Assembly: GCA_964658305.1 (NCBI GenBank)
Contig: OZ210884.1
Span: forward strand, 3,844,001-3,908,000
Length of the DNA: 64,000 nucleotides
DNA from: Leptogorgia sarmentosa
Taxonomy: Eukaryota
Reading direction: 5' to 3'
Part shown: piece after piece, positions 16,476 through 54,052 of the stretch
Position numbering within the stretch: the stretch's first letter is position 1
Layout: the number at the start of each line of letters is the position of its first letter
Program-made: the position numbers and the translations under genes
Notes under the pieces: model-generated
What the model was told of the DNA's origin: nothing
The model's database searches: none
What the model saw: the letters and a program-made list of their open reading frames with translations, nothing else

Positions 16476-16597
16476 AAATTGCACTGTGATTACAGAAAAT
16501 TGCACTGTGATTACAGAAAATTGCACTGTGATTACAGAAAATTGCACTGTGATTACAGAAAATTGCACTGTGATTACAGAAAATTGCACTGTGATTT
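16476..16597. repeat. 21-bp minisatellite (AAAATTGCACTGTGATTACAG), ~6 copies
   Basis: Direct reading; explains the CNHSAIF-repeat ORF. Confidence 0.95.
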
Positions 16598-17279: not shown

Positions 17280-17349
17280 ATGGCTTGTCTTGTAGTACGT
17301 AATTGCCTGTTTATCTGTGTGTTTCTGACGATTTATGTGGAAACCAGAG
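17280..17349 (+). CDS. Putative first exon encoding a signal peptide ([24 protein letters not shown])
   Basis: ATG in AAAATGG context, basic residue then hydrophobic core, strong donor AG|GTAAGC in phase 1 matching the EGF exons. Confidence 0.65.
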
Positions 17350-20300
17350 GTAAGCTTTGCGTCGAATTTTGATAATTTCAATTCCTATATTGAAGCACAC
17401 TGTAAAAACATATTGGTTGAAATGACCAGAATGTCTGAGAGAACCAATAAAAATTGGTCATTTTTACCAATAAAATTAACCAATAACTAATTGGTCATTT
17501 GAATATCCATATAATAGCATCATATCAGTAACCAATAAGGAACTAACTGTCTTCATGTGTGTTTTTATCAAATTCTAAAAAAATATGCGACTAGCCTTCG
17601 GCTAACTTTTCATTGAACTAGCTATAATTAATTTCTTGATACTGGTTTTTTAAGGGTATAATAATTGCCTTTTATGTTTTTCAGGGAAGAACACTTAAGA
17701 TTGAATTTATAAAGTATGCATTATATAGATATATGGTTTATCCATCGCGTGTATCTGTAAAATGCAACAAAAATAGGAAAAAAGTAGTATAATTTCCTTA
17801 CAAATGAAAGTAACTGTCGAGAACTTTGCCCAATCTCAAACACACTGCCGTGAAACCTTGCCATAAGCGCATAAATGTATCACAAACTGGGCGGTAGTAA
17901 ATTGATCTTTTTCTCTAAACTGGCGCTTTTTTTATTCTATATGACATGTCTTATTAATATATCAATCATGAATTACTAGCCTAGAAGAAATTAAATGAAA
18001 AAGCCTATCATTGCAGATGGCATGAATGTTATGTTAGAAAATTTCAGCCAATTTGTTGTTAAGTAATGCGGAAGTGTTTGTAAAAAATCTCTAATATTAT
18101 GTAACCTAAAATTAAATGCAACCTAAAATTCATGGTCATGTTAAAGCCTGGCATACCTAGATCGACATGCAGGTCGTAATTTTATACCAGAAAATTATAG
18201 CCAACTGATTACTGAATTCGTGGTTCATAAATGCGGAAGTGTTTGTAAAAAATCTCTAATATTATGTAACCTGAAATTAAATGTAACCTAAAATTCATAG
18301 CAAAGCCTATCACTGGCATGGCAGACCTAGATCGACTGACATGGCAGACCTAGAACTACGCTCGTTATCGCTCGGAGCCACTCGCCCGTATGCGCCCTCA
18401 CCGTCCAACAAGAATAGGGACCTTAAGATCTACAACGCGACCAACTCGACGACGCGCTTTCCGAAGAAAGAAATTTTTATGCTGAACAAAAACCAAGCAT
18501 AAATTGTGGTCCCCAAGGGCCATCCTCAACGGCGTTGTTGTTATCAACGCAACGTTAAACTAAGCATAATCACGTCTTCAAAACAACGTGAAGGCGGATT
18601 ACAACGTGAGAGCTGTTACTTCAAGCTGACTACAGCAACGATCGCATTGCTTTAGCTGAACCTACAGTGTGTAACTGTTTCTTGAACAAAATTCCAACAT
18701 CTATTAAAGCATAAAAAGGTCAGCACTCATTTTCAAGCCGAAAGTTAGACCCCGTCGTCGAGTTGGTCGTGTTGTAGACCTTAAGGTCCCTATATTTACT
18801 GCAACGGAGCCCAGCTAATCCCGATGAACCACTGTTTATGCTCCAAAATAAGGAACTCCTTACGAGAACTCTACCTAACGCTAATCTCAGAGAACTGTTA
18901 AAAATGTTAGGTTATAACGAGACAGGGAACGCCCCGCATAGTTTTAGAATAGGTGCAGCTTTACGTTATCAGCGTCCAATAATTATTTTTTTGGATCGAA
19001 CTTGCATCCAAAAAAAGTATTATTGGACTCTCTCGTGCGCAAACCCTAGCGCTGTCAAAAGCTTGAAGCTAAAAGCGCGCGAAAAAACAAACAATGGCCT
19101 GCAGCAGATTTGTGGTATGTTTTACTACGTGAAAATGGTATATATAACCACGGATGCAACCATCTAACTGCTGCAGTGTAAAACTTAATTCCAGAGCATT
19201 GTTTCTATGTTATTTAGTATATTTCTTTCACATTTTGCATTTGGTCGTATTTTTAAACCGATAAACGTCGTATTTATAATACTAAACGATTTTAGATTTA
19301 CGTCGTATTTATAATATAACCATGTCGAATATAAAATGTATATGGCGTTAGGCTTTAGGCAGTGTAAATTGGTAGCGATATAACTGTACTTGAAGGTACA
19401 AAACATCGATTTCAGTTTATGTTGTACCTGCAAGTACACTTTTGCTATCACCACCAAACTCACATTTGACGAGTAATACACCATGGTTATATATACGCAG
19501 TTGTTATTTGCCGGTCACGGACACGTACGAGCTTTGGCAATTTACCGTGAATACGCGGGCTATTTGCGGGCAATTCTAAATTCCGACTCTAAACAAAAAA
19601 TAAAGTCTTTTCTCTCTTTTTTTCCCTAATCCAAACCCAAACTCTAATCAGACCCTAACAGCAAAAATGCTGGGAAGAGAGCAAAATAGGCAAAGCTAAA
19701 AAAAAGGTAGAACATCGCGCTCTGGATTCGAACCCGGGAATTGTTTCACGGCGATCCAAACCTAAACCACTAGACCAACGAAGCTCGACACAAACTCTCC
19801 GTAAAAAATTCCTTATAAACAGAAAAATTCACGGACAAATAGGCAAAGCTCGTACATGTCCGTGACCGGACAAATAACAACTATGTTATATATTTGCTGC
19901 CGAGCGAAGCGAGGCAGCACACTATTCTTGACACGCGGTTGTTTCCCCAGAGTCTACTCGACCCAGTCTTTCGCGCGAGTTATGTATTGTCGAGATCGAG
20001 ATCTTGTGTCTTTCTGTCTGTCTGTCTGTCTGTCTGTCCATAAAGATGTTTGTCGTATCCGGGGGCATAATTAAGCTTCAGGGACGTTTGTTAAAAGAGG
20101 GGAGCGGTCAGAATAATTAAGCTTCAGCCTTCAAGTACATAAACAAGATATTGTATTGCGCACGCGGCACGCATCTCCATGTGCTTCAAGAATCGAAAGG
20201 TTTTTACAAAAGCGTTTCATACGGATGCAAGATTGTGCTAATGTTTTATGCGTTGTGGTTTGGTATTTGGTATTTATGGCGATCACACATATGATGCAAG

Positions 20301-26300: not shown

Positions 26301-29300
26301 CGATGATGAAATACTCGTCACATTTAAAATTTAATATACGATCTATACTATATGTCCACCCGTTGAACAAAGACCTCAACGGGTAGTACCCGATATTTCT
26401 CAATTGAGAACATGGGTAATGCCCACGCTGGATTATCGTCTAAGTAGCCTGGCCTGGTAAATTATGAACAGTGATTGCCCGGGTCTATAATCATATGCAT
26501 TTAGCCAGGCCAGAGTGGTGAGCAGCGAGCTCGATGTAGCTCAAGTGGTAAGGCACGCGGTGCGTGCGTTACAGTTCTATAGTTCAAGCCCCGGTTCGAC
26601 ACATTTTTTCAGCGTTAGTGATTAAACATTTTTTTCCTCAATATTTTTTCAACCACAATGGTCAGGGTTAGGATTCTAGGGTTTGGGTTGGGATTAAGGA
26701 AATTCTTAGTATATAGAAAAATGGTTTATATCTAACACTAATATAACTATATCAAGAGTAATACTGAAACGCCGACCAGCAAGCTTAGACGATAGTCCAG
26801 CGTGGGCATTACCCGTGTTCTCAATTGAGAAATATTGGGTACTACCCGTTGAGGTCTTTGTTCAACGGCTGATATGTCTTGGGGTAGTGATATCTAAACT
26901 GTACTTGCAGATACAAAGTATACAGAAATCCTGTATATATAACCATGATGAAATACTCGTCACATTTAAAATTTAATATACGACCTATACCATAGGTTTT
27001 GGGGGGTGATATCTAAACTGTACTTGCAGATACAAAGTATATACAGAAATCCTGTATATATAACCATGATGAAATACTCGTCACATTTAAAATTTAATAT
27101 ACGATCTATACTATATGTCTTGGGGTAGTGATATCTAAACTGTACTTGCAGATACAAAGTATACAGAAATCCTGTATATATAACCATGATGAAATACTCG
27201 TCACATTTAAAATTTAATATACGATCTATACTATATGTCTTGGGGTAGTGATATCTAAACTGTACTTGCAGATACAAAGTATACAGAAATCCTGTATATA
27301 TAACCATGATGAAATACTCGTCACATTTAAAATTTAATATACGATCTATACCATAGGTTTTGGGGGGTGATATCTAAACTGTACTTGCAGATACAAAGTA
27401 TACAGAAATCCTGTATATATAACCATGATGAAATACTCGTCACATTTAAAATTTAATATACGACCTATACCATAGGTTTTGGGGGGTGATATCTAAACTG
27501 TACTTGCAGATACAAAGTATACAGAAATCCTGTATATATAACCATGATGAAATAATCGTCACATTTAAAATTTAATATACGACCTATACCATAGGTTTTG
27601 GGGGGTGATATCTAAACTGTACTTGCAGATACAAAGTATACAGAAATCCTGTATATATAACCATGATGAAATACTCGTCACATTTAAAATTTAATATACG
27701 ACCTATACCATAGGTTTTGGGGGGTGATATCTAAACTGTACTTGCAGATACAAAGTATACAGAAATCCTGTATATATAACCATGATGAAATACTCGTCAC
27801 ATTTAAAATTTAATATACGATCTATACTATATGTCTTGGGGTAGTGATATCTAAACTGTACTTGCAGATACAAAGTATACAGAAATCCTGTATATATAAC
27901 CATGATGAAGTACTCGTCAAATATAAAATTTAATATACGAGTCTACTAGCTAGGTCTTGGGGGTAGTGATACCTATATACTGTAGTTGCAGATCAGCAGA
28001 TACAAAGTATACAGTAATCCTGTATATATAACCATGGTGAAACTGAAATAACCACTCCTTTTTAAGCGAATATTGTAGGTCACAGATGGCGTGGATTCGT
28101 AGTGAATCCTACTATATTTTCGGGAAATGAAAAGCCGATACACCGATTTTTGGTATCATAACCATTGTACGATCAGTTTTTGTCAAGCTGTTTAACAACG
28201 TTTATTCTTTGAAATCTCGAGTTTGTTGGTTGTAGCGCTAATCTAATAACTGCACACAATGTTGTTAACGTAATTGTAATATTTAGAATATCTACGTGCT
28301 TTATCGTCATTTTCTAACCCTATTTTGTGTGATTTTTGCCCAGATGATGGTCAGCATTTTCTATCAATTCAGTTATTTTTATAGATCAACGAGTAAATTT
28401 TTACATTTGGTCAGCGGAAATACCCACAAATTGCGTGGTTGCATCTGTGGTTATGTATACTGAAAAATGGATATGATACATATATCCAGATTTTCTTCGC
28501 TGAATGAAAGTGAACTCTCTTTTAAATGTATAATAAAACAATTATTGGATTCGGCTTTCGCATGATATCAAGAATTATTCAGACCTCGGTCAATGTTATC
28601 CGCCTCAGCTTCGCTTCGGCAGATAACATTGACCTCGGTCTGAATAATTCTTGATAATTATCATTCTCCGCCTCATCCAATAATTGTTTATTAAAGTAAT
28701 GAAAACCAAATATGTTACTGTTTTAACTTTTGTATCTTCCCGACATGATCAGTGAGGGCCTTCACATCATACGTTAATTAAAAACGTTTCTGGGTTCAAT
28801 ATAGACTAGCTTTCCTCGCTTTCAACGGTATTATTAATAATGTTCAACTCAAACACCGATACTTTTTTAAGACACTCGGTGGTCTAACTTTTCGTCTACG
28901 TAGAATAGGGTTGAATATATTCGACGTAGTCTTTCTTCCTTCATTTAAGGTCTAGCTCAGGGAAGGGAAGAAATGACAATTGTATTGTTTAGTCATATTT
29001 ACAACAAATGCAAAGTCTAAAATGATTCAATTTAGATCCAAACACGCACACCTAAATTATTGTTTAGAACCGCCCTTTGACGAGGAGTGTCTATATAATC
29101 ATAGTACGGACATTTGTGGCAGAAATTCTCAATGTAAGTATTGATACTGCTTGGGGTTCCAGACGCAAATGTAACCCTGGTTATTCAGGAGTGGTTTGTA
29201 CTGGTAAGGCTTGTTCTCTTATTATGTACGCGCCAATCATCTACCTTTTCCTGGTATATTCAATTAACATGTTCTTTATATTATAACCTATGCAAAATTA

Positions 29301-32300
29301 CATTACATCAGCACTACCAACGTTAACGCAGATTGATAGCTAATATCATTGCATTTCAGTCTGGTTCTCTTAATATATATGTATGTTTTGGAGAACATTA
29401 TAATCAAGGTGCATGTTCCAAGATTATATCATCGTTCTCCATAAGAATAGATTTTGTGAGTATAGTGAAATTAAAATTATTATAAAGTCTGTTACATGTA
29501 TTCTTAGATGAAGCCCGTAGCAGAGGGGGGGGGGGGGGTGCCCCACCCACTCGGAAATAAAATTGAAATTGTGCCCCCCTATTCCACAATCTTTTTGCCA
29601 TTTAAAAATTAGACAGCGAGGCTGTCTTGTCCATGAAAGAATAGTAATCGAAGGCGTAGCCTAATTATTTTGGTGTAGTAGCCACAAACACTATCACTGT
29701 GATAGTCAGTGTGACGTTTGAATATCTGAATATTAACAGAAATATAAATACATTTATATGCAGCTTTTGCTTTTTTGGTTTTAGTTAAGCCCACTTATGA
29801 CAGTAACGCCGACGAACTTGGTATGATAATACTTTGATAACACTGTAATATACCCTTTATTTTCATTTTGAAATTTTAATGTGTGTGAAACATGACATAC
29901 GACAAAGACCGTGGATCACTAACTAAACTAGCTGCGAGTTCAAAAGTTCAAAAGCGTACCAAATCTTTTTAAATTTTTTTTCTGCAGCGCCCCCCCCAGA
30001 AAAAAAGAGCCATGATCAATGTTCTTCGACTAACAACTGCCATTCCAATGCTGATTGCATCAACACTTATGGGTTTAACGTGTGCACTTGTCGCACTGGA
30101 TACAAAGGAAATGGAATTCTTTGCACTGGTAAACAAACCCCATTTATTAATAAAACCTGCCTTAAAAAGACAATTCAGAGTTGTTTTTTTAAATAAATGA
30201 GTGATAACCTAAAATATTGTTTTTTAAAGCTCTGCCAAATATTTTCAGATATCGATGAATGTTCTTTTTCTCGTGACAAAAACTGTCACAAAAATGCCAT
30301 TTGCAGCAATACTGATGGATCTTTCTTGTGCACCTGTGGCACTGGATTCACTGGAAATGGAATTCTTTGCACTGGTAAACAAACCCATTTACTAATAAAA
30401 CCTCTCTTAAAATAAAGACAATTCAGAGTTTTTATGAAATAAATGAGTGATTAAACCTAAAATATATATTTTTTAAATTTTTGTCAAATATTTTCAGATA
30501 TCGATGAATGTTCTTTTTCTCATGACAACTGTCACGAAAATGCCATTTGCAGCAATACTGATGGATCTTTCTTGTGCACTTGTGACACTGGCTATACAGG
30601 AAATGGAATTCGTTGCAGAGGTAGAGTCAAACTAATTTGGTTACATTAAAAATTTCCAAAAATCCTTTTCTATAATTAAGAGCGAAGATTCTGAAAAGAG
30701 GTAGTAATAATCTAAATGTCTATACGTGGAAGTTTTGAAAACGAAGGAAATGCTTCGAATGAATTAAGCTATCCATAAATGGTAAATAAATGTATAATTG
30801 TTGTATCCGTTTAGATATAGATGAATGTTCTCTTTCTCTTGACAACTGTCACGACAACGCCATTTGCAGTAATACTGATGGATCTTTCGCTTGCACTTGT
30901 GACACTGGATACACTGGAAATGGAATTCTTTGCACTGGTAATTACTAAACAAACCCATTTACCAATAAAACCTTCCCTTAAAAATAAAAATAATTCAGAG
31001 TTTTTATGATTATGAAATAAATTTGTTACAACCAAAAATATTTTTTTCGTGAAAGTTTTGTCAAATATTTTCAGATATCGATGAATGTTCTTTTTCTCGT
31101 GACAACTGTCACGAAAATGCCATTTGCAGCAATACTGATGGATCTTTCTTGTGCACTTGTGGCATTGGATACACTGGAAATGGAATTCTTTGCACTGGTA
31201 AACAAACCCATTTATTAATAAGACCTTCCTATAAAAAAAAATAATTCAGAGTTTTTATGAAATAAAAGAGTGATAACCTAAAAAATTGTTGCGAAAGTTT
31301 TGTCAAATATTTCAGATATCGATGAATGTTCTTTTTCTCGTGACAACTGTCACGAAAATGCCATTTGCAGCAATACTGATGGATCTTTCTTGTGCACTTG
31401 TGACACTGGCTATACAGGAAATGGAATTCGTTGCGGAGGTAGAGTTAAGCTAATTTGGTTACTTTAAAAATTTCCAAAAATCCTTTTCTATAATTAAGAG
31501 CGAAGATTCTGAAAAGAGGTAGTAATAACCTAAATGTCTACGTGGAAGTTTTCAAAACGAAGGAAAAGCTTCGAATGAATTAAGCTATCCATAAATGGCA
31601 AGTAGATGTATAATTGTTGTATCCGTTTAGATATAGATGAATGTTCTCTTTCTCTTGACAATTGTCACGACAACGCCATTTGCAGCAATACTGATGGATC
31701 TTTCGCTTGCACTTGTGACACTGGATACACTGGAAATGGAATTCTTTGCGGTGGTAATTACTAAACAAACCCATTTATTAATAAAACCTGCCTTAAAAAT
31801 AAAGATAATTCAGAGTTTTTATGATTTATGAAATAAATTGAGTTACAACCTATAATACAATATTTTTTTCGCGAAAGTTTTTTCAAATATTTTCAGATAT
31901 CCATGAATGTTCTTTTTCTCTTGACAACTGTCACGAAAATGCCATTTGCAGCAATACTGATGGATCTTTCTTGTGCACTTGTGGCATTGGATACACTGGA
32001 AATGGAATTCTTTGCACTGGTAAACAAACCCATTTACTAATAAAACCTGCATTAAAAATAAAGACAATTAGAGTTTTTATGAAATAAATTAGTTACAACC
32101 TAAAATATTTTTCTTGAAAGTTTTGTCAAATATTTTCAGATATCGATGAATGTTCTTTTTCTCGTGACAACTGTCACGAAAATGCCATTTGCAGCAATAC
32201 TGATGGATCTTTCTTGTGCACTTGTGACACTGGCTACACAGGAAATGGAATTCGTTGCAGAGGTAGAGTTAAACTAATTTGGTTACTTTAAAAATTTCCA

Positions 32301-38300: not shown

Positions 38301-41300
38301 CCTTAAAATAAAGACAATTCAGAGTTTTTATGAAATAAATGAGTGATTAAACATAAAAAATATTTTTTTGAAAGTTTTGTCAAATATTTTCAGATATCGA
38401 TGAATGTTCTTTTTCTCATGACAACTGTCACGAAAATGCCATTTGCAGCAATACTGATGGATCTTTCTTGTGCACTTGTGACACTGGCTACACAGGAAAT
38501 GGAATTCTTTGCAGAGGTAGAGTTAAGCTAATTTGGTTACTTCAAAATTTCCAAGAATCCTTTTGTTGAATTAAGAGCGAAGATTCTGAAAAGAGGTAGT
38601 AATAACCTAAATGTCTACGTGGAAGTTTTCAAAACGAAGGAAATGCTTCGAATGAATTAAGCTATCCATAAATGGTAAGTAAATGTATAATTGTTGTATC
38701 CGTTTAGATATCGATGAATGTTCTCTTTCTCTTGACAATTGTCACGACAACGCCATTTGCAGTAACACTGATGGATTTTTCGCTTGTACTTGTAACACCG
38801 GATACACTGGAAATGGAATTCTTTGCAGTGGTAATTACTAAACAAACATATTTACTAATCAAACCTGTCTTAGGAATACAGATAATTCAGAGTTTTTATG
38901 ATTTATGAAATAAATGAGTTACAACCTAAAGTATTTTTTGTGAAAATTTTGTCAAATATTTTTAGATATCGATGAATGTTCTTTTTCTCGTGACAACTGT
39001 CACGAAAATGCCATTTGCAGCAATACTGATGGATCTTTCTTGTGCACTTGTGACACTGGCTACACAGGAAATGGAATTCGTTGCAGGGGTACAGTTAAGC
39101 TAATTTGGTTACTTTAAAAATTTCCAAGAATCCTTTTCTATAATTAAGAGGGAAAATTCTGAAAAGAGGTAGTAATAACCTAAATGTCTACGTGGAAGTT
39201 TTCAAATCGAAGGAAATGCTTCGAATGAATTAAGCTATCCATAAATGGTAAGTAAATGTATTGTTGTATCCGTTTAGATATCGATGAATGTTCTCTTTCT
39301 CTTGACAACTGTCACAACAACGCCATTTGCAGTAACACTGATGGATCTTTCGCTTGCACTTGTGACACTGGATACACTGGAAATGGAATTCTTTGCACTG
39401 GTAAACAAACCCATTTACTAATAAAACCTTCCTTAAGAAGAAAGATAATTTATAATTTTTATGAAATAAATGAGGTAGAACCTAAAATATTGCTTTTGTG
39501 AAAGTTTTTTCAAATATTTTCAGATATCGATGAATGTTCTTTTTCTCATGACAACTGTAACGAAAATGCCATTTGCAGCAATACTGATGGATCTTTCTTG
39601 TGCACTTGTGACATTGGATACACTGGAAATGGAATTCTTTGCACTGGTAAACAAACCCATTTACTTATAAAACCTGCATTAAGAAGAAAGATAATTTATA
39701 GTTTTTATGAAATAAATGAGGTACAACATAAAATATTGTTTTTGTGAAAGTTTTTTCAAATATTTTCAGATATCGATGAATGTTCTTTTTCTCATGACAA
39801 CTGTCACGAAAATGCCATTTGCAGCAATACTGATGGATCTTTCTTGTGCACTTGTGACACTGGATACACTGGAAATGGAATTCTTTGCACTGGTAAACAA
39901 TCCCATTTACTAATAAAACCTGCCTTAATAATAAAGACAATCAGAGTTTTTATGAAATAAATGAGTGATAACCTAAAATATTTTTGCGAAAGTTTTGTCA
40001 AATATTTTCAGATATCGATGAATGTTCTCTTTTCCTTCACAACTGTCATCACAACGCCATTTGCAACAACACTAACGGATCATTCGTTTGTACTTGTGAC
40101 ACTGGATACACGGGAAATGGAATTCTTTGCATTGGTAAACAAATCCATTAATTAATAAAACCTGCCTTGAAATAAAGATAATTCAGTTTTTTGATAGAAT
40201 AAAGAAGTTATAACCTAAAATATTTTATTTGTGAATGTTTTGTCATATATTTTCAGATATCGATGAATGTTCTTTTTCTTGTGACAACTGTCACGAAAAT
40301 GCCATTTGCAGCAATACTGATGGATCTTTCTTGTGCACTTGTGACATTGGATACACCGGAAATGGAACTGTTTGCAAAGGTGAAATTTAAATAGGTGCTG
40401 AACGGTAATTTGATTCCCCAACATCTTAAATATCTTTCTCGTTTAATAGAAACAAACAACAAGTAAACTTTTCAGGAAATTCTTGAAAGATTTTATATAG
40501 AACTAATTAAACTAGTCACATGTTGTTTAAACATTCATTAAATGTGTTTAAACATTCATTAAATGGAGAATATCATAAACGCACATGTTTGTTATTTCTC
40601 AAGCTACCAATGTATATTTTTATGTGAAAAAGTAATTTGCAGAGGTAAACTGAATAAAATATGTATTTTTTATTCCTCAAATTTTCGACAAAATGTGTTG
40701 AAAACCTGAAACCTTTTTGGCGTTCCTTTCAAAATCTAATTATTCTGTGATTATTGTCTCAATACAATTGTCTATTTGTAATCTTCGAAACTTTGTATTG
40801 CTAATGAGAAACTAAAAGGAACATAAAAGATATGAGCTAGCAACACTACTTCAATGTTCGTATAACCAGCGCAACATGATTGAAGCCTTGGTTTCGACAA
40901 TAAATACAAGATTTTAAACATAATTTTCTCTTTGGCGTGCCGTCCAAATCTATTTTCTTCATTGCATATCATAAATTATGTATCCGCCAGGTTTTTGAGG
41001 TTAGTCTACTAACCGAGAAACTTCAACTTCGGAATACATATTTTGAAGAACCTGAGCTTTGAGCGCGAGATACGGAAATACAGAAAATCTTTGTCTTAGT
41101 AAAACCTGCCTCTGAAATAAAGATAAATTTGTATTTTAACCGAAAGATTAATATCCTCAACTTGAAAAAATTATATGTGGACGTTCTCTTTTATATGTTT
41201 AGATATCGATGAATGTTCTCTTTTCCTTCACAACTGTCACGAAAATGCCACTTGTACTAACACTAACGGATCATTCGTCTGCATTTGTGTCTCTGGGTAC

Positions 41301-44300
41301 ACCGGAAATGAAACACTTTGCAGTGGTAAACTAAATAAACTTGTTAACAAGACGTTCTCCCAATTGTGGAATAAAGATAAAAATGTAGAAAGATGAAAAA
41401 ATTATGTGGACATTAACTGTTGTATATGTTTATTAGATATCGATGAATGTTCTCTTTCTCTTGACAACTGTCACGACAACGCCATTTGCAACAACACTGA
41501 CGGATCTTTCGTTTGCACTTGTGACACTGGATACACTGGAAATGGAATTCTTTGCAGTGGTAAACAAGTCTATTTATAAAAGGCCGTCCCTTAAAAATAA
41601 GGATAATTCAGAGTTTTAATGAAAAAAGAGGTATAACCTAAGAAAATTGTTGTGAAAGTTTTGTCAAATATTTCCAGATATCGATGAATGTTCCCTCTTT
41701 CTTGACAACTGTCACGAAAATGCCATTTGCAGCAATACTAATGGATCTTTTTTGTGCACTTGTGACATTGGATACAATGGAAATGGAACTGCTTGCGAAG
41801 GTAAATTGGTGGCGAACGGTAATTTGATTCCCCAGGAGACCAAGTACGTAGTCATTTGGGTGCAAAATGAAACTCTATTTCAATTTTCAAACTCATTGCG
41901 TGTGAGTGACCGCTGCTAATTCATATTCCACGGCCAGTATAATTTCGCAATAATGTCCATTATTTCTCGCCATGAAATATCACACTCGTTTAATACACGC
42001 AAACAACAAGTAGCTAAACTTTTCATTAAATTCTCGATAAACTCCACATATAGTCTAAAAAAGAACTAATAGAACTAATTATAGTAGTCACATGTTGTTA
42101 TTTCAATTTTTTTTTAAGAAAATGTGATTAATTCTTCATATATACTTCAATGAAGATGGTAATTGTATATGTTTAGATATCGATGAATGTTCCCTTTCTC
42201 TTGATAACTGTCACGATAACGCCATTTGCAAAAACACTCATGGATCTTTCTTGTGCACTTGTGACACTGGATACACTGGAAATGGGACTTTTTGCAGAGG
42301 TAAACGAGAGGAACTAAACATTTTGAAGTTTCTTTACAGAAATTTTACGGAAATATTTGTAAAATAAAGATTTTGATAAAAAACATTTTCTAACCATTTT
42401 TAATAGATATTGATGAATGTTCAACAAATACTCACAATTGTGACAATAATGCTATCTGTATCAATAAGAATGGATCCTTCACTTGTGATTGTAAATACGG
42501 ATATACTGGAGATGGACTATCGTGTCAAGGTTAGTGAATGTCTGTTTTATGTCTAATGTTTGTTTGTTTTTAGTTATCTTGTTGCTCTTTGTTTTCGTTC
42601 TCATTTCAACACGATGTTTTCTATTTCCTACATACAGGTATGCAGCTTGAGCGATGATCTATATATTGCACTTTATTTCTTTAGTTCTTTGAACTGAGTG
42701 CCACTATTCTTCACAGAGGGCATGCCCTCTGGGAAGATTTAAACTCAACAGTATCGCAAACGCCATTTCCTGCATTTGTGTGGAAGGTTTCACAGTATTT
42801 TGAAGCCCATAAAACGGCGCAGGTGTAAAAAAATTTAGAATCTGGTGCGTTACAACGGAATACAATACAGATAGTTGAAGATGATCGAACTTACCTCGGC
42901 CGAAAAATTAATATCGACAAACTTTTTGGGTTTTCCCATGAAAACAGGGATAAGAATTAACGCATGTGTTTCTGCGGCTCAGTGAGTATATGGCTCGCTC
43001 AATTTCTCCACCGGACAATATGCTAAGTAACTCTAAAAAGATTTTCAAAAGGACGTTAAACAATATTTTTCAGTAGGCCCAAAAAAATTTTAAGGTAGGC
43101 CCAACAAACTCCAGGGTAGGCGCTGGCCCATCTTGGCCCACCCTTGGGCCGGCCCTGATACAAATTTTAAAAGGCAAAAGCACAAATGAAGAACAAAATT
43201 CTAAACAATATGACCTCTAAATCTTTCACAATGGTGTTCAATAAAAATAATGAAATAATTGTAGATTTAGAAATATTCCACCAGCTAATGGTAGTGGTCA
43301 CCATGGCCTCGCCTCACCATATCGTACTCTACTCTGAGGTCTTTCTCTTTATATAGGTCCTCCAATCGTATATGTGACACCAACTAATGTAACAGCTGTT
43401 GAAAACACGTACAGTAATACTGTTTTGTCTTGTAACTGTGGGTGCTCAATCCGACCGTATTGGTTCAAAAACAGTCAGTTGATTCATTTCAACAAAAGTC
43501 AGTCCCAGTACACTTTGTTGGCAAATGGAAGCTTGCATATCAACATTTCCAGAGTTGCATCCGGGCACTACAGTTGTGAAGTGAGATGGATGGATAGAAC
43601 ACATTATTGGAGTGTGAGGTCAGAGCAAGTTCGGCTTGAAGTATGGTGTAAGTATGATAATTTTCTTTTTCTAATAACCGTCATATAATTACTCCGCCTA
43701 GATTAATGGATACGCTGAAATTTGTCGGCGAAATAGAGTAGTAAACGAACGAACAATTTGAAAACGGAAACCAAACTTGTTTGAATATTTTTGCTCACCA
43801 TAAAAAAAATCTCCTCCCGCAATTTGACGGAAAATTTCCCCCTTCAACACCCGAATAATCCTCGAAAACACGTTTGTGTTAAAAAAAAGCTTTTTTAATT
43901 GACAAAGCCACTTCACAATTCCACCAAAAGATCTTTCTGGCAGTAGCTATATAGGGTAAACTTCGGCTTTTAGCAGTGCATTTTCTAATAATTCTTTTGT
44001 GATTCCAGATTTAGATGATTGTTATGTAACAGGTGATCAGCAGGTTTATGAAGGACAAAATATAAGCTTGAAATGCAATGGAACAGGATACCCTATTCCT
44101 ACATTTGCATGGTACTTGGGTGGACGTCAACTGAAGATCAATCCTCGGATAAATATAAATGAAAATCAGTTGAATATTTTAAATGCTACCGCAATGGACG
44201 AAGGGGAATACGCATGCGTTGCTATTAATCGAGCCGGCCAGGTGTCGTATAAAGTCGACGTTGACGTAGAAGGTGGGCGGGTGGCTTTTATGATAGTGTT

Positions 44301-47300
44301 ATCATTTTGAGAATTAATGGTTCTAATTTTCCGTTGATGATTTGTTGACTACTCCAAAAAGTATACTGTCTGCCTCTTGAGGAATAAAAATAAGTAAATA
44401 TCGAGCATAACTCATGCCGCTTGCTTAAAATTAGAAGATACGACGTACGTCAGCAGTTATTTTTTGGTGATCTTTGCTAATAAATCCACAACCCGAATAA
44501 GAAGATAAATTAATCATGTACACATGCAAAAATAACTCGAATATGTTAAGAACATGAAAATACAGAGTAATCAAGTATAGTATAAAATAATTGACGTTGT
44601 AAACAAGCCAAACATGGCCCTTAATCTATCATGCATGTGAAATTTTATTATCTTTCATCAGATGTTCCTTCCATTCAAATGTTGGCAAATGTCCCAAAGT
44701 ATATTGTTGAAGGAACAGCTGTTCGATTCACATGTCGATGGATGAATTTGTCTTATATCGGTCTGATTTCAAAGATGCAACTAGTGAAAGATGGACGCTC
44801 TTTTTATCAGTGGTCAGAGCTCAAATTGGTTGGTTATACATTTACGACACTGTTTCGCGCGGCGGTAAGCCACACAGGAAGATACCAATGCAAAGGAACA
44901 ATTGGTGCCGCGTCACGTTATTCTTCACCCTTCTCTCTGGTAGTTGGCAGTAAGTGCAGTTATTCCATCACCTGTGATGTCATACGAAAATGCTATTTTA
45001 TAGATTAGCCGTATAATTATTAAAAAATATAAACGTTCTCTGACTAAAATTTAATTAAAACGAGCTTTCGACTATACCTAACTGTAGTCTTCGACGGGTA
45101 AAGTGGAATAGGTAGTCGAAAGCTCGTTTTTAAATAAATTTTAGTCACTCGGAGAACGTTTATATTTTTTAATTATGCATGTCTAAACCTGGCTACGCTA
45201 TCTCCATATTTTCTCGTATAATTATTATTCAAATGTTTTTTCACAACTGATAGAAAGTAGAGCTATAGGCTTATAGCTAAAGCAAAAGTATTTTCTACGC
45301 CAATAAAAAGTAAAAATGCATATACGTAGCTGCATGCAATTCTCTAACTGTATATAGAGAAACGATGGTAAACCGTCGAACTATCACTTCCGCACCCAGG
45401 AGTTCGTTCGTTTAAGGCAACAAACAGTTTGATATCAGATGCATGATTATTTTTGATATAGTACCATCAGGACCTGTTGTGTTAGAGAAAAAAAAAGAAA
45501 CCAGTACAACCGGAATAAAACTTTCATGGAAACCTATCTCAAAGACGTTTTGGAATGGAGAGCAAGTGGAGTTTATAGTTAATGTTTCTTCAATGGATCC
45601 GATTTGGCAAAAATCTTATATAACGAAAGCAACCAATGCAATAATATCAAGTCTACGTCCAGCAACTAGATACACTGTTAGTATTACAGGAAACACAGTT
45701 TTTGGTCCATTTCAAAATTCTGCCGTTGCTGTGTTGGAGACTAAAGAAAGTAAGTCAAGTAATCCAAAGTCTACTGTTTTGGTCAAGGATACAGTTACAG
45801 ATTAATGATGGCCTCCTTAACTGTCATATATGTTTTTGAAATCTCAATTATTCAAAGCGAATTTGATTGAAACACCTAGCTACGTAATTCCATAAAAGAT
45901 GAAATCATTAACGATCTTACGTCTCGTTATGAAATTTCTTATTATTGCAGATAAAAACAGCATGAAATTCCAGCTACGAATACGATTAACAAACTATGAA
46001 TTTTCGAAAAGCTCACTGGACCCAACTTCTACTCAGTATAAGAACCTGAAATCTAAACTGGAGTATTCGGTACGCCAAAACACTTATTTTTTCGTTTTCT
46101 TCTTATTCTAATATAATATTTTCTTCTTATATTTAATTTATTATGAGTAATTATGATTTATGATGACAGTTGAGTGAAATTCTGTGTTTTAAGCTTGACG
46201 ATATCTTTCAAAAATCTGACATCAATTTTCTATACATCGGCTCAACTGTTTCCGGATTTGCGTAAGTAAATGTTATTAATAACTATTCTTATAATATTCT
46301 GAAATCAAATTTGGCATTAATTCATGGGTATTTGTACAAAGCTGTGAAAAATGATTTTTACTCGTTCTCATATTATATAGAGAAGGAAGTGTTGTGGTAT
46401 TGGCTGTTCTGTCCTTAGACACCAAATTTAAAAGCTCCTCCTCATCAAAACTTGCCCAAGAAATAAACCAAGCTGACACAATTGCTGGATACAGATTTGA
46501 CAAGTCTTACACAAAAGAAGAAGGTATATTATATTAACATTTTTGTCTCATAGTTCAAAACTGGAAACGATGGTTAATCAAGATGACAACTCAAGAGAGG
46601 TGACTATTTCACACGCAAAGATCTTCAACGACATATAGGTTTACCGATGCATGAAAAGAAACTTACGCTTATAATTTCATTTAGCTAGTAAACACCAGCA
46701 TTCATAGATGTAGATTTCAATAACTACTCCGTTTACCAGCGTATTCGAAATAAATATATATATATTACTGCATGCGTATTATAGATTTTGATGAATGTCA
46801 GAATGCTGATTTTAATACCTGCCACGAATACGCACATTGTGAAAATGATGTGGGAACTTACATTTGTAAATGTTTTGATGGTTTCTTTGGTGACGGTGAA
46901 GAATGTCAAGGTAGAACGAATTTATTGATCTTTATGGTTAAATCAATGAGTGTAAATCACTGATAATGAAAAAAAAACGAGATTCCAGAAACACTTGAAG
47001 TATATAGGCCTACTTTTTTACAGGTCCTCCTCAAATTACAACAAAATCACCAGCAACTATTACCCAGGTCGTTGAAAAAAACGTGACTCTAGTTTGCGAA
47101 GTGATTGCTGATCCTAACCCCACAATTACTTGGAGACGTTTTGATCCTCATGGCAAATATGATGTAATCAAACGCACAGTTGACAAGGTTGATGGGAATT
47201 ATACGATTTACAATGCACGTTTAAACGACTCTGGAAAATATGTATGTAATGTGTCGAACAAGCTTGGCTACGATTTCTACATCACAGAAATAACAATAAA

Positions 47301-50300
47301 ACCAGGTATAAAAAAGCTACTGTTGTCCATTGTGCATATACCATTAGCAATAACATCAATGAGCTTGTCATGTACAAAAACCTAAATAAATGCAAATACT
47401 TTTTTTCTGCAGAGATTGTTAACATAAGTGTTGAGATAAAGCTTTCCAACGAAACATTCAAGGAAGAATTGAACAATAAATCTTCTTCTGCCTATAAAGT
47501 TTTAGAAAAGGACGTGTATGTCGAGGTAATTTTATTTGTTTTGGAAAACTGAACAAATTGCCTTAGTCAACTTGCTGTATTTTTTTATAAACTGTGGTTA
47601 TAAACCGTCAACCGTGGTTATAAAATGTGGTTATAACCGTGGTTATAAACCGCGGTTATAAACCGTGGTCATAAACCGTGGTCATAAAGCGTGGTTAAGA
47701 ACTGTGGTTAAGAACCGTGGTTGGGAACCGTGGTTATAAACTGTGGTTATAAACCGTGGTACGAATGGGTGTTATCCTACTTTCCAGCAAAAAAACCATG
47801 GACTATACATAGTCCATCACCATACAACATCTCAATTCGAATTGGAATTCTTAAATTTCATGAATTCCTGGTCCCTATTTTTTAAGGCAGGCCTGTCTGT
47901 AATATTTTTTAATTTCATCTTATGCACTATCATTACTTTTCAGCTGTACAATTTTTTCAACAATACTCCTGGATTTAAAGACATAGAGATTCTTGGATTC
48001 GTGTAAGCAGTAAATTACACATATTTCACTTTCTAGGATCTACATTGTATACGATTTTAATGTTTTGCATTCATTAGCTTTCTCACATTCATAGTTTCAG
48101 TTTAAATCGAAAATTAGGCTACAGTATATTCTTATAAAATCACAACAGTCTGCAAGTGGATTTTGAAAATATCGTAGATAAAGTAGCTACCAAATTGATT
48201 TACGATCCTTCAGCATGCCAAATGATGAAGCTAAAAGAGTATACTACTAAAGTTAATGGACGATTGTTGACATATTACAAACTTCAGTGTTTTATCTTCG
48301 CTATAGTAAAGGAAGTGTAAAAGTAATATTTCGAGTCGTTATGAAAGTCCTAAAACCTTCAAAAGAAACAAACGATGTTGTTGCAGTAAAAGTTGGTCGG
48401 AAAATCAGTAAGCAATTAAAGACAGGTCGCATTGGCAATATCCTGGTTGTTCCTGAGGCTATACAGCTCAGAGGTAATATAACGTTAAGGGGTCCAGCCT
48501 CCCTCCTCCGCCACCTCCAAAAAAATGAATGAAAATTTACAAGGAACCGTTCACAGGCACTAAATTTCATATTTTATTATTTGAAATATTGTCTGGAAAA
48601 ACTTAGCCAAACTTCATCTCTTTGTTCAAGTAAATGCAGACTTGTGCAAGGTGAAGGCACAAGCATCCATCCAACTTTCATCCATTCACCATTTGCATCC
48701 ATCTTGCAACACGATCGCTCGTTCGGCAAATAATTAAGGATATATTTTTTTCTTCAGCTGTTATTCTAAATCTCTTTGTTAAAATTTAGTTCCACCGCCT
48801 CCACCGGCCAACGTCACTTATTCAGATGTACGGGAAACAAGAGTACATGTCCGTTGGGATCCACCTGAACTCGATAAAATGTTCTCCATTAAACGATATT
48901 ACATCACCTATTTAAAGCAAGGAGAAAACGTATGGTTTAATAACACGATCAATGTTGACCAAGAAACTAATTTCCAACTGGATGACCTGGAAAGTGACAC
49001 GTTTTACACTCTGAAAATAGTTGCTGAGAATGACTATGGCCTTGGTAAAGAAAGCAGCGGAATGGAAATTAAAACTATGAAAGTTAAAGGTTAGTGGAGA
49101 TATCTAGATCGATAGCTAAAAAAAAAAAGTTCGAGTTTGCTTTGCGTAACAAATAATTTATAATGGTATCACAATCTGCCTCAGTTTGTGTTATCTGCCT
49201 CGGCCTTTGGCTCTATGTTATTCAATAATTGTTTAATAATATTTTTTTTTCTCGAAAAAATCATCTGAATAATAAAATATTCACCTCAAACTTGGTGAGT
49301 ATCGGTGCAAACCAATTCCATCTGAATGAATAAATTTGAAAATCGTTATATTTATTGCTCATGATTCTCTTATTTTAGTTATTTCACCATGGTATTGGAT
49401 TGCTCCAATCATTGCCGTTGCTTGCATTTTGTTAGTGTTGGCTATTATCTTTTTGGTGAGACGAGTTTTGCTCAGTCGTGCTTGGAGACTTCCAGACATA
49501 AATCACGACTCCAGAAAAATGGAACAAAAGGTAAATTTTTTTTTACATTGAATATAATATTAAACAACATCGTCGAAAGGTGACACAAAGGATAAAGGTG
49601 TGAGGAACTCACAATTTTTAAGCAAAGGTATTTTTTGATTTAGCATCCTGGTCCAAATAGTAACATTAAAGCCATGCTTCTTTGTTGTGCCGAATTTGGC
49701 ATTGACTTCCAAGGAGTTATGCATCTTTGTATTTAGCGGGAGGGCTAGGCTAGCTATCGAAGTGAAATTGTGAGATATACAGTACTGTGCAAAAGTTATC
49801 GGCACCTCGTGAAAAAGCATTTGACGCCATCTTATTGTAAACTTATCGTATAAGTTTACAATAAGTTTACAATAAGGTGGCGTCAAATGCTTTTTCACGA
49901 GGTGCCTATAACTTTTGCATCGTATAAGTTTACAATAAGATGGCGTCAAATTGCTTTTTCACGAGGTGCCTATAACGTTTGCATCGTATAAGTTTACAAT
50001 AAGATGGCGTCAAATGCTTATTCACGAGGTGTCTATAACTTTTGCACAGTACTGTATATTGTGAAAGATGGATATATTGACATGGCACAGATATGTAAGA
50101 TTGCTTTATGAATACCAATTTTAGGTGTTGACCATATTCTAAGTTGCATTAAATTATCCACCTGTTTAATTTTTCTCAAATTATTTTTAAGACGTCGACT
50201 TTCCAGATGATAACAAGACGAAGGCACAATAAAAATTCGAATGAAAACTTGGTATTCAGTTCAGGCACTCATAAAAGCCGAGCATGGACAGAATTTGCAA

Positions 50301-53300
50301 GAGCGTCGGTTCAAATATCCAACAATACATTGGTTTCAGGAGAATTCGGGACGACAAAAATTGTAAAAGGGAATCTTACATTTTCTCTTGGAAATATACA
50401 AAGAGAGTGTTCTGTCAAAATGCTGAAAGGTAAAGTTTTAGTTTTTAACTACACAGCTATATTGAACACTTGTTCAAAGGCACAGAGGAAAACAACATTA
50501 GTATGCCCACAATTAGTATGCCTACAATAAACGGTCAGATTTCGAAGCTTTATAATTTTGTTTTGTACTCTTTTTCCCCTTTCCATAGATAAGAACTGTT
50601 TAATCAAGTATCGAAGCCTGTCATGAATTAAGGCACTCTGCAAAAATTAAATCATTAATTATTGGACGATAACCTCCCTCCTCTACCTCACCCCCCCCCC
50701 CCCCCCCACTTATTGGTAATGCCGTTGCGCACTGGCATTGTTGTTTTAGTGGTATAACCGATGTTCAATGTCCAGTCATGTGTTGAATCTTGTAAAACAG
50801 AAAAGCTGCGGTCAGGTGTAAGATGGCCGACAACAACATTTTCTTTGATTGTTCATTATTTTCATTAAACCCTATTAACTTGCATGAATATCAGTGATAC
50901 CATGCACTCAAACTACAATGCTCTGAATTACTAATATTACTAATATCCATTTACGATCATGCATATGACTTAATGCAATTTCCTCCTTCAGAAAAAACTA
51001 CACTGAATGACCCCAAGGACCTAATGAATGAATTGACCATTATTTCTGCAATACCCTCTCATGAAAATGTTGTTAATTTAATTGGTGCCTGCACCAGCGA
51101 CGACGGTGGGTAATATATTCATTTTTTACTTGATGTGAGCTCCACGTTGCATTGCATCTGCACCTCACTCAACTGAACCTTCCACGATAAGGATTGATAT
51201 ATTTTTAATAACACATTAAAAATCTATTAATTAAGAAATATCTCGAGCACTAAACGTATTTATTAACTCCACTATTCTTATCATCAAAACAAGCACAATG
51301 TCACGGTGTCAACAATATTTCAGTGTTATTAGACACCCTATGCAGGTTTAGCATTAATATTTTTCACATCGATCTTTGAACAATGTTGGTAACAAAACAT
51401 TGCTCAATCCCATTGTACTGTTTGCGCAATATTTTTGACTGTTTACTGCCATCTGAAATGTCATAACCTACACCCTGCAATGATCGATGAAAATGGAATT
51501 ATAAAGCTAAAGGGTTTCGTTTTACGAAACTTGTTGTTTTTAGGCCCTCTACTGTTAGTGTTTGAGTTCTGCGCTAAAGGTACTCTCGAAAGTAACCTGG
51601 AAGAAAGCGAGAAGAATAAGAATTTGTTCACGAAGAAGACTAAGATTGGTTTAGCGAGCGAAATTGCAACAGGAATGAGACATCTTGCTGATGCAAGGGT
51701 AAAGATATTGTATAATATATTGTGTGGTATTCCGTTAAGGTGGCAGTGACAACGTCAACCTTGAAAAATATTTTATAAAATCAGTCTATAATGAGCTTCT
51801 CTCATAACCAAATTCGTTATTCTCTTTGCTTTAAGATTGTTCACCGGGATTTAGCGGCAAGAAATATTCTTTTGACAGAGAACTATACCCCTAAAATTTC
51901 CAATTTTGGTCTTTCACGTGACATTTATGAGCAGGGTTCGTACTACAATTGTAAACCGGTAAGTTCAAACTCCGTAACTTCGTACCACTAGAGTTGTTTC
52001 ATCTGCATCCACGACTTATTAACTGCAAATGAATTTGTACAATGTTTATCATCAATAATTTATCAATCTTTTGCGAAGAATTTCTCATCGACGGAAGTAT
52101 ATGGTAATCTGGAATTTTCAGGCTTCCGCCGTGCCGGGTTGATAATTAAACCAAATGATTTACCCTCCAGCACGGCGTTTTCTTAGCAACTTAATTTGAG
52201 ATTTACAAGCCATTTTTTATGTTTCCAGGAAAGCACATTGTCTCGATGGTCAGCTATCGAAGCATTGACTGATGGGTTGTACACCACCAAGAGTGATGTG
52301 TAAGTTATGTATTTTCAAAATATGCTTTCCCTCTGCGTTTTGTTTTCGTGCGAGGTGTCTTAGGTTTCTTGGGCATTACTGCAAGTATTAGCCTTGCTGG
52401 TACAGGAATGAAGCGGGTTAAGTAGTAAATTGCAATGATTTTAGTGATTTAAATGTAGTTTTATTGATAAAACACCTTGTCTTCACTAAAATAATTCAGT
52501 TATCATCAAGCGTTCGGAATATTCGACTGTCTTCTTGTTATTTTACAAGCTTCTCTTTTCTTCATGTCAATAATGTGCACTATTATCAGACCTAATCCAT
52601 TTGTTGTATTATCAGTGACATCTCTTAGCTATTTTTATTGACATATTTTATGAAGCTGGTCCTTTGCAATAGTAATGTGGGAAATTGAAACCGAAGGTTA
52701 GTATATAAGCAATTTGCATTAATAGCTGATAAATACAGTAACAGCTGACCCAAATATTCCCTTGATAATATTGAAAACAATACTGGTATGGTGTGCGGTA
52801 TTTACAGAGACAGCATGGTAAGCCCTCTCATCCCCCCCCCCCCCCCCCACCCTATACAGGAGAAAGCATTGTAAAACCCATGCATTCAGTTTATAAAGTG
52901 CCTTTATCACTCTTTAACAATAATTGCATGCGGCTCGCAGCTTCGCAGCTTTGATCGATACAAAAGCTTTAAAATTTGATAAAATGCCTCCTGCGTTTGC
53001 AACGTGTCAATTCGTCAGGAAACATTGAACAATCATTACGCCATATAGGTTGTCTTCCGTATGCAGACGTTGACACCACAGATCTTGTCGGTCAAATTAA
53101 CAAAGGACATCGCCTATTTAAGCCAGAAGAAACTGCAGATGATATGTAAGTACCATCTTACTAATAAATTTGGTCCAGGTAGGCATTGGCGCGCGAACGT
53201 TACAAAAACCTTTTTAGTTGTTCATTTAGTTCGTGTCCATTATACGTATACATATTAAATCACATTTTTGTCTACTCAGGTATAAACTGATGCTTCAGTG

Positions 53301-53382
53301 TTGGGATGCAAATCCAGAAATTCGGCCAACATTTCATGAAATTGCAGACATTTTGGAGAGTCAAAACGACAAGGTGCCTTGA
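17280..53382 (+). CDS. Giant multi-exon receptor tyrosine kinase-like gene: SP - ~41 EGF - Ig x3 - FN3 - SEA - EGF - Ig - SEA - FN3 - TM - tyrosine kinase (~2,900 aa)
   Basis: Phase-compatible GT-AG exons: 17280-17349 (signal peptide); 29988-30128; 40 cbEGF exons 30249-42529; Ig 43357-43647, 44009-44272, 44662-44949; FN3 45462-45749; SEA 45951-46069/46194-46261/46381-46523; EGF 46785-46910; Ig 47024-47305; SEA 47413-47525/47944-48002/48307-48473; FN3 48790-49089; TM 49379-49530; kinase 50192-53382. The link of exon 1 to the rest is inferred. Alternative last exon 53478-53513. Confidence 0.8.
17398..17545. mobile_element. Possible isolated CACTA-type terminus
   Basis: CACTGTAAAAA followed by clustered TTGGT/ACCAA subterminal motifs; no partner end found. 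Confidence 0.4.
18360..18960 (+). pseudogene. Remnant of a DIRS/Ngaro-type tyrosine recombinase ORF, split by a MITE
   Basis: [13 protein letters not shown]...[10 protein letters not shown]...HSFRIGAA is the HxxR box of retroelement tyrosine recombinases. Truncated after the motif; the 5' boundary is approximate. Confidence 0.75.
18414..18793. mobile_element. MITE with ~40-bp TIRs
   Basis: ATAGGGACCTTAAGATCTACAACGCGACCAACTCGACGACG / CGTCGTCGAGTTGGTCGTGTTGTAGACCTTAAGGTCCCTAT. Confidence 0.92.
19496..19885. mobile_element. Non-autonomous TIR element (P-like CATAG terminus) with internal minus-strand tRNA-like cassette
   Basis: ~40-bp TIRs AGTTGTTATTTGCCGGTCACGGACACGTACGAGCTTTG. A box (19767-19777) and B box GGTTCGAATCC (19724-19734) on the minus strand, followed by a T-run. 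Confidence 0.8.
19893..20834 (+). mobile_element. Helentron-associated non-autonomous element (HINE/DINE-1-like)
   Basis: 5' subTIR TTGCTGCCG (19894) with local hairpin partner GGCAGCA; (GTCT)n at ~20014-20038; 3' subTIR CGGCAGCAA (20801); CTAG end at 20834; internal palindrome 20329-20393. The interrupted satellite monomer resumes right after it. Confidence 0.75.
20835..24520 (+). repeat. Satellite array A, ~91-94-bp monomer, ~39 copies (first monomer starts ~19427), with a local 279-bp trimer higher-order repeat
   Basis: Monomer TATACAGGATTTCTGTATATTTTGTATCTGC...TATCACTACCAAACTGCACATTTGACGAGTATTTCAMCATGGTTATA; the ORF track recurs every 94 and 279 bp. Confidence 0.97.
24545..28043 (-). repeat. 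Satellite array B, ~120-bp monomer, ~25 copies, homologous to array A but inverted
   Basis: Reverse complement contains TGACGAGTATTTCATCATGGTTATATATACAGGATTTCTGTATACTTTGTATCTGCAAGTACA, shared with array A, plus ~26 extra bp. Confidence 0.97.
26357..26871. mobile_element. Non-autonomous TIR element (~87-bp TIRs, 7-bp TSD ATATGTC, CA...TG ends; P-like) with tRNA-like cassette
   Basis: CACCCGTTGAACAAAGACC... / ...GGTCTTTGTTCAACGGCTG; TSD at 26350-26356 and 26872-26878; A box TAGCTCAAGTGG at 26537, B-box-like AGTTCAAGCCC at 26581, T6 at 26604. Confidence 0.9.
28531..28693. mobile_element. Palindromic non-autonomous element
   Basis: AACAATTATTGGAT...ATCCAATAATTGTT arms with a central GCTTCGC motif; decayed relative at ~49145-49240. 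Confidence 0.8.
29068..29203 (+). pseudogene. Frameshifted EGF-like exon upstream of the intact EGF array
   Basis: [23 protein letters not shown] hits TGA; the rest ([23 protein letters not shown], one Cys replaced by Arg) is in another frame. Acceptor at 29067, donor at 29204. Confidence 0.65.
30249..42529 (+). CDS. Array of 40 calcium-binding EGF exons (mostly 123 nt, phase 1-1)
   Basis: Each reads DIDEC.....NCH.NA.C.NT.GSF.C.C..GY.GNG..C between AG and GT; counted by eye from acceptors at 30249...42407. Confidence 0.93.
30620..37260 (+). repeat. Three near-identical 2,216-bp higher-order repeats, each containing 8 EGF exons and their introns
   Basis: Identical ORFs recur at 31580/33796/36012 and 32404/34620/36836; sub-units of 816+824+576 bp (3+3+2 exons). 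Confidence 0.96.
37370..38105. mobile_element. Non-autonomous element inserted in an EGF-array intron
   Basis: Expands a normally ~120-bp intron. Terminal hairpin GTACTGGAAAATATTTTGTC...GCCTTCGGC...GACAAAATATTTTCCAGTAC. Confidence 0.8.
40790..41080. repeat. Dispersed repeat, diverged inverted copy at ~55085-55340
   Basis: Shared segments such as TATAACCAGCGCAA and AATTTTCTCTTTGGCGT; similar spurious ORFs 40772-40972(-) and 55263-55451(+). Confidence 0.7.
45023..45214. mobile_element. Short inverted-repeat insertion with 13-bp flanking duplication, Penelope-like remnant
   Basis: CGTATAATTATTA at 45010-45022 and 45215-45227; ~55-bp inverted arms ending in GTCGAAAGCTCG, resembling a hammerhead-type core. 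Confidence 0.6.
47590..47762. repeat. 14-bp minisatellite (AACCGTGGTTATAA-like), ~12 copies
   Basis: Direct reading; quasi-palindromic unit. Confidence 0.9.
49780..50054. mobile_element. Tc1/mariner-type MITE with TA TSD
   Basis: TA|CAGTACTGTGCAAAAGTTAT ... ATAACTTTTGCACAGTACTG|TA; internal ~60-bp repeats in both orientations. Confidence 0.9.
50192..53382 (+). CDS. Tyrosine kinase domain exons (50192-50429, 50992-51105, 51544-51698, 51836-51958, 52229-52299, 52656-52696, 53049-53145, 53280-53382)
   Basis: [68 protein letters not shown]...P..RPTF; all introns are GT-AG and frame-consistent. Confidence 0.93.
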
Positions 53383-54052
53383 ATGAATTTTAAAGCATAA
53401 TATATAATGATGTGCCATTTTCTTTTGCATTCATGGCTCCAGGATGTGATGTTCCATTTTTTATTTTTCCTTTTTAGTCTTTTGTCGAGGTGCCTCTTAA
53501 CACTAAGAACTGATCTACACTGACCATCATCATGACCAGCAATTGACCGTTTTTTATTAACTTTTTGCATTGGGTCTCGAATTAAACATATATGGGACCA
53601 AGTTGATGTGGGACAGTAAAATATAACAATCATTAATAGTATGTGCGAAGTATATATAGGAGTGATCATATACGTAAAGAACTTCGATTAATATTATGCT
53701 TTATAAAAGTACATTAAAGAGCAGTAGTTTGGGTGTAGCCTTTCTTGTTTTTGGTTAAAAATATAATTCTTGGAAATGGTGTTAGCGGTGCATGTGGTTA
53801 TATGAAGCCAAGAAAAGTATAATTACTATAATTATGCTGGATAAGACTCAACTTTTTATTTTCTTTGTATATGACATGAGTCTTACATTACAGAAAGAGA
53901 TTTCTCTTAAAAATCGTATAATGAGATTTTTACTACAATAAGGTGAATAAATAAAATTTTTTTCTTGGTCATTAAAACCGTGTGCGTTTATTGTTGACGA
54001 AATAGCAATATGGCGCCAACGCAACTAAAGCAATTTTTGAAAAATTTAATTG

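Follow-up and report, generated by a model that had tools for sequence, protein, structure and literature searches.

A predicted receptor pseudokinase with an EGF rod and two SEA domains in the octocoral Leptogorgia sarmentosa

The 64,000 nucleotides of Leptogorgia sarmentosa analysed here (contig OZ210884.1, positions 3,844,001 to 3,908,000; hereafter the window) contain a gene that is best read as a member of a conserved receptor pseudokinase family, without a published description, that is sister to a SEA-FN3 receptor of Porites. The gene model (17280-53513, plus strand) joins 65 exons into 8,763 nt encoding 2,920 amino acids, with a single stop at the end, and the predicted order is signal peptide, 41 EGF, three Ig, FN3, SEA, EGF, Ig, SEA, FN3, transmembrane segment (TM) and tyrosine-kinase domain (Table 1). 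The SEA-EGF-Ig-SEA-FN3-kinase core is that of an octocoral family already present in RefSeq (XP_028418079.1), and the rod of 41 EGF units is a recent addition specific to the window copy.

Table 1. Features of the receptor gene, in positions of the window.
Feature	Position	Strand	Basis
First coding exon with predicted signal peptide and phase-1 donor	17280..17349	+	gene model; hydrophobicity
Decayed EGF-like exon (136 nt) missing one Cys, not in frame; outside model	29068..29203	+	
EGF0, without calcium-binding consensus	29988..30128	+	exon model, Pfam
40 one-EGF exons	30249..42529	+	exon model
Higher-order repeat, 3 x 2,216 bp, 8 EGF exons each	30560..37207	+	
Ig1, Ig2, Ig3	43357-43647, 44009-44272, 44662-44949	+	Pfam; spliced in paralog contigs
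FN3a	45462..45749	+	exon model, Pfam
SEA1, three exons; GSVVV motif 46385-46399	45951..46523	+	
Inner cbEGF	46785-46910	+	exon model, Pfam
Ig4	47024-47305	+	exon model, Pfam
SEA2, three exons; GSVKV motif 48311-48325	47413..48473	+	
FN3b	48790..49089	+	exon model, Pfam
Transmembrane exon	49379..49530	+	hydrophobicity
Juxtamembrane region plus tyrosine-kinase-like domain (nine exons); stop 53511-53513	50192..53513	+	
Asn codon at DFG Asp position (NFG)	51902..51904	+	kinase alignment

In a six-frame scan the plus strand showed dozens of EGF-like frames between 29.9 and 46.9 kb, followed at 51.8 kb by a catalytic-loop motif, and exons were placed by pattern and coordinate. An AG acceptor and a GT donor are found at 64/64 introns each, and 64 matching phases together with coherent domains cannot be put down to chance. 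Donor 51109 and acceptor 50182 were tried and dropped because they break the frame; an RNA joint fits 51105. Two candidate first exons (ATG, phase 1) lie within 12000-29990, and only the one at 17280 is hydrophobic. Pfam searches of 21 single exons returned EGF_3/EGF_CA, four Ig, two fn3, the starts of two SEA and PK_Tyr_Ser-Thr, with four of the 21 giving no match. The predicted protein has only two strongly hydrophobic stretches, the N-terminus and aa 2546-2583, which supports the single-pass receptor proposed in the initial annotation; the signal peptide, one TM helix and PK_Tyr domain with HRDLAARN place it in the RTK fold class. That annotation had also assembled phase-compatible exons into a protein of about 2,900 residues, which the open 65-exon frame bears out. 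Its domain order and its 41 N-terminal EGF units match ours and agree with Pfam on single exons, and its remark that short exons hide the gene from an ORF track holds, with 58 of the 65 exons encoding fewer than 60 residues.

The carboxyl-terminal domain, initially called a tyrosine kinase, has the PK_Tyr fold, but its DFG motif reads NFG and the first glycine of the GxGxxG loop is replaced. A pseudokinase has been defined by the loss of at least one of the VAIK Lys, HRD Asp and DFG Asp (PMC13519141), and by this sequence definition the domain is one, since the DFG Asp is lost. In a 47-row kinase alignment, Asn occupies the DFG Asp position in the window copy, in an intron-free contig (L001) and in a Dendronephthya protein (P0011), while Asp is found in 44/44 of the others; the first loop Gly is kept in 42 of those 44 and in none of the three family rows, which do keep the beta-3 Lys, the alpha-C Glu and the HRD Asp. 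The Dendronephthya domain has also lost the catalytic-loop Asn and the second loop Gly, and the P+1 Pro is gone from two of the three full family domains; the window copy keeps the catalytic Asn and two activation-loop Tyr. NFG occurred in 10 of the 83 motif-bearing proteins examined from our searches, all 10 resembling the window family, and nine exon-sized records with NFG were 71-95% identical to the NFG exon of the window.

Measured against L001, dN/dS was 0.28 in the kinase domain, 0.20-0.35 in the ectodomain and 0.34 in Ig1-3. To judge from these ratios the kinase domain is under purifying selection, and a value of 0.28 alongside NFG suggests that the fold has been preserved despite loss of the Mg ligand. 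We predict with considerable confidence that the domain is catalytically dead. The same D-to-N change in BRAF impairs activity, with CRAF still activated (PMC5601124). It is quite unlikely that the protein is an atypical but active RTK, forming ligand-driven dimers and phosphorylating with Mn or at a low rate: the retained Lys, Glu, HRD Asp, catalytic Asn and activation-loop Tyr of the window copy would allow this, as would the precedent of the plant kinase ILK1, which carries GFG and is active with Mn (PMC9403797), but NFG and the loop Gly loss coincide in all three full domains, two lack the P+1 Pro, the Dendronephthya member lacks the catalytic Asn, and the family sits on a long stem branch. 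Another tyrosine-kinase exon with NFG was seen elsewhere (L003, 7332-7574); because its flanks are like those of a different kinase group, it suggests that the DFG Asp was lost there independently.

Among 67 matches from 7,990 candidates scored, Dendronephthya gigantea XP_028418079.1 alone covered the whole SEA-to-kinase part, at 56%. This protein, automatically named "angiopoietin-1 receptor-like, partial" in RefSeq, matches the model at 54% identity across 821 aa and shares with it the order SEA-EGF-Ig-SEA-FN3-TM-kinase and the NFG motif, but the record is partial at the N-terminus, leaving the tip outside it, and its kinase is more degenerate than that of the window. L001 holds a 1,223-aa frame from Ig1 to the kinase, collinear with 22 window exons and 75% identical over 1,213 aa, and was the only family member with a long ORF among the 80 loci listed. 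A search for homologs of the juxtamembrane exon gave 0/36 candidates, and the 150 matches listed from a search of 1.8 billion proteins contained family members only as fragments the size of an exon, none of them full-length. The word-index search covered proteins of up to 2,141 aa, and other giant members may exist. We found no published account of the family in the main texts openly available; a tabulated mention may exist in supplements or in subscription cnidarian-kinome papers. The available portions of PMC8662651 and PMC4890752 do not mention it.

The window copy, L001 and the Dendronephthya protein formed one clade (SH-aLRT 100) on a long stem of 1.0-1.1, and its sister in both trees was a motif-intact FZ-kringle-FN3 kinase of Porites (SH-aLRT 97); both were quick trees without bootstrap, the second keeping 26 of the 47 rows after removal of long branches and near-duplicates. 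The Porites cluster, which includes XP_073252086.1, has the order FZ-kringle-FN3-SEA-like-FN3-TM-kinase, and its SEA-FN3-TM part aligns to the family (E 8e-8), but all its catalytic motifs are intact, its tip is FZ and kringle, and it has no Ig or EGF. Tie1 and Tie2 likewise combine Ig, EGF, FN3 and tyrosine-kinase domains, and Tie-1 clusters came out on top in an ESM Atlas feature ranking for the Dendronephthya protein; Tie did not group with the window family in the free tree, though the AU test did not reject a joint clade (p-AU 0.38). The Tie ectodomain is Ig-Ig-3 EGF-Ig-3 FN3 with no known SEA, an arrangement that the window protein lacks, and the Tie DFG is intact. The closest solved single domains in the PDB were RET and FGFR. 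RET itself was rejected, as Pfam found no cadherin domain in the 21 exons scanned and RET fell in a separate clade of the quick tree.

The human receptor tyrosine pseudokinases PTK7, RYK, ROR1/2, STYK1, HER3, EphA10 and EphB6 are similarly single-pass with an altered DFG and glycine loop, but differ in ectodomain. ROR belongs to another clade; PTK7, RYK and STYK1 lay outside our tree. In Table 2 of PMC13259870, none of eight human receptor pseudokinases has NFG, and the same source describes PTK7 as also shed. Ig, FN3 and SEA also come together in a coral RTK of Montipora, XP_068687447.1 (an Ig-FN3-EGF-SEA kinase), which falls in a separate kinase clade and has an intact DFG and a single juxtamembrane SEA. 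The Montipora proteins P0015 and P0022 carry many Ig, FN3 and EGF-like domains, a juxtamembrane SEA with Gly-Ser-Val and a motif-intact kinase, so that two or more coral clades have RTKs bearing SEA. The homolog search alone returned cnidarian RTK ectodomains with NIDO, kringle and Ig-SEA; since cnidarian RTKs often have unusual ectodomains, finding one here is less surprising. Homolog search and trees together support the initial view that the receptor matches no described RTK class and is lineage-restricted; of that interpretation the novel ectodomain stands, the label of tyrosine kinase calls for correction, and the resemblance to Notch is weak.

Sequencing runs X8 to X11 have no recorded kind and were taken as RNA from their spliced joints. 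Contigs of X8 and X9 skip introns; of the 15 joints listed, 14 agree with the model and one departs from it at the 3' end. From a second contig comparison came joints for Ig1-Ig2 and Ig2-Ig3 and a weak one for EGF39-EGF40. Counted over the joints listed, support extends to 16 of the 22 junctions from Ig1 onward and to 1 of the 42 before it. One RNA joint, 53359 to 53497, departs from the last intron of the model and was taken as the 3' end of a paralog. The spliced contigs listed are probably paralogs of the window copy, from which they diverge by 1-13%; L001 shares 19 of their 35 variants. The contigs spliced across Ig1-Ig3, with 675-759 bases upstream, were called paralogs because they are about 87-95% alike to the window. 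The Ig1-to-kinase half is accordingly supported by spliced paralog contigs.

No EGF40-Ig1 or exon 1-EGF0 joint occurred among the RNA contigs listed, and the parts left uncovered are uninformative on expression. A contig from another sample (X4) spans EGF40, the intron and Ig1, with phases that fit. We infer that the EGF rod is spliced to Ig1, and a single transcript including the rod is very probable. Upstream of Ig1, L001 has a Cys-free piece without a match in the window, which by eye resembles the terminal part of an FN3; the tip thus differs between paralogs. RNA contigs of X10 and X11 show an EGF40-like exon (at 42407) in a joint with a Thr/Pro-rich stretch, and therefore related EGF exons are used in other, mucin-like genes. 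The divergence of the spliced contigs might also mean that the window copy is a silent recent paralog drifting toward a pseudogene, and the decayed EGF exon, whose inner donor at 29133 would yield an in-frame 66-nt mini-exon, points the same way. This is very unlikely for a copy whose whole coding sequence runs through canonical introns without stop or frameshift and whose dN/dS is well below 1.

The N-terminal array consists of 41 EGF exons (EGF0 and 40 more), each of phase 1-1. The exons of EGF1-40 measure 123 nt (one has 126), and the introns between them 107-879 nt. The full cbEGF consensus, taken as D-x-D/N-E...C-x-D/N-x4-F/Y-x-C, is present in 37 of EGF1-40 and, with the inner EGF included, in 38 of 41 DxxEC exons; EGF_CA scored above the Pfam cut-off in three of four EGF exons scanned. 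By the usual linker-type and O-fucose consensus rules, all 40 linkers are short and of fibrillin type, and one of the 41 units has an O-fucose site. Notch-type EGF receptors have two-residue EGF linkers, O-fucose sites, and LNR and ankyrin repeats; the 65-exon model has no LNR or ankyrin exon, and a Notch-type receptor was rejected on these grounds. The "fibrillin/Notch-like" rod first proposed is hence fibrillin-like in linkers and cbEGF consensus, its likeness to Notch, at one O-fucose site, being weak.

Three blocks of 2,216 bp hold 24 of the EGF exons. Copies 2 and 3 are identical, introns included, and copy 1 differs at 8 places, which reflects either a very recent duplication or an expansion in the assembly. 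With so many exons in near-identical repeats, the rod may be of variable or overestimated length. It is rather unlikely that the giant protein is overstated altogether, with an EGF array that partly stems from duplication in the assembly, is skipped for the most part, or belongs to a gene of its own. The identical copies and the lack of an RNA bridge among the contigs listed would fit, and skipping would be frame-neutral because every EGF exon is phase 1-1, but a model with two copies removed retains 25 EGF and 2,264 aa, neither a terminal exon of the array nor a second signal-peptide exon was found, and EGF40 adjoins Ig1 in the second sample as well. The intron after EGF26 (37269-38147), which closes the repeat block, is 879 nt long against 107-194 for most and likely contains an inserted element. 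Intron 1 holds two back-to-back satellite arrays at 20835-28042 (a 94-bp unit x39 and a unit of about 120 bp x25-29), whose units share, by eye, a common core in opposite orientation.

Across the 24 distinct 123-nt EGF exons the six Cys are invariant, pN/pS is 0.42, and intron lengths are free to vary. We consider it unlikely that the protein is a variable recognition receptor, for self/non-self or microbes, with a constant signalling core and a tip swapped or resized among paralogs. L001 and the RNA paralogs do differ upstream of Ig1, there are several diverged copies, and the array is growing by recent tandem duplication; the near-identical EGF units with their pN/pS of 0.42, the dN/dS of Ig1-3 and the absence of a distinct binding domain at the tip argue otherwise.

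Both SEA domains have a Gly-Ser-Val motif in the beta-hairpin, and GS-V/I motifs are kept in both SEA domains of the window copy, L001 and the Dendronephthya protein. The MUC1 self-cleavage site is GSVVV (PMC9564314), and cleaved SEA halves stay bound and separate under force; cleavage hinges on loop strain, and GSVxV alone is no proof of it (PMC10556640). By analogy, both SEA domains are predicted to be self-cleaving in the manner of MUC1. MUC1 and other SEA-cleaved membrane mucins also place a GSVVV-type SEA beneath a long stalk, but the window stalk is built of cbEGF, Ig and FN3 instead of O-glycosylated repeats, has two SEA and ends in a kinase-like tail.

We see about an even chance that the protein is a single-pass pseudokinase scaffold or partner on an EGF stalk, shed at a self-cleaved SEA when pulled. 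Because the key catalytic residue is missing, it would signal by contact or pull and not by enzyme activity of its own. The calcium-stiffened stalk would bind matrix or neighbouring cells; a cbEGF is about 3 nm long, and a rod spliced to Ig1 would give roughly 120 nm of extra reach. Each SEA, as in MUC1, would cut itself at Gly-Ser and stay bound until force parts the halves, making the SEA pair the release point under load. Output would depend on adaptors or on a partner kinase that is active, on the analogy of HER3 and PTK7, with the cleaved stub as a changed state; human receptor pseudokinases likewise rely on a partner kinase or on adaptors for non-catalytic signalling (PMC13259870). The putative adhesion or mechanosensing role gains weight from the SEA cleavage motifs. 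A bolder version, of which we are doubtful, would make the octocoral family a set of force fuses, with two self-cleaved SEA in series, a swappable tip, a reach tuned by amplifying EGF exons in tandem and an active anthozoan sister kinase as output.

If this reading is true, a receptor pseudokinase arose in addition to the eight human ones, and the loss of catalysis can be traced because stony corals hold a motif-intact sister. The joining of mucin-type SEA self-cleavage to an RTK scaffold was not found in the literature searched. The length of the receptor would moreover have been altered by very recent exon-block duplication.

Other frames were seen in the window. A RING/TRAF-zinc-finger frame and a Kelch frame (4178-7996, minus strand) are possibly one E3 ligase gene, and a reverse-transcriptase fragment lies between them (5373-6242, plus strand). 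Two MYND fingers with DUF4470 follow at 8973-10598 (plus strand). An ABC transporter ATP-binding fragment is located just past the receptor stop on the opposite strand (54053-54772), and a Patched/sterol-sensing domain frame at 56708-57196 (plus strand).
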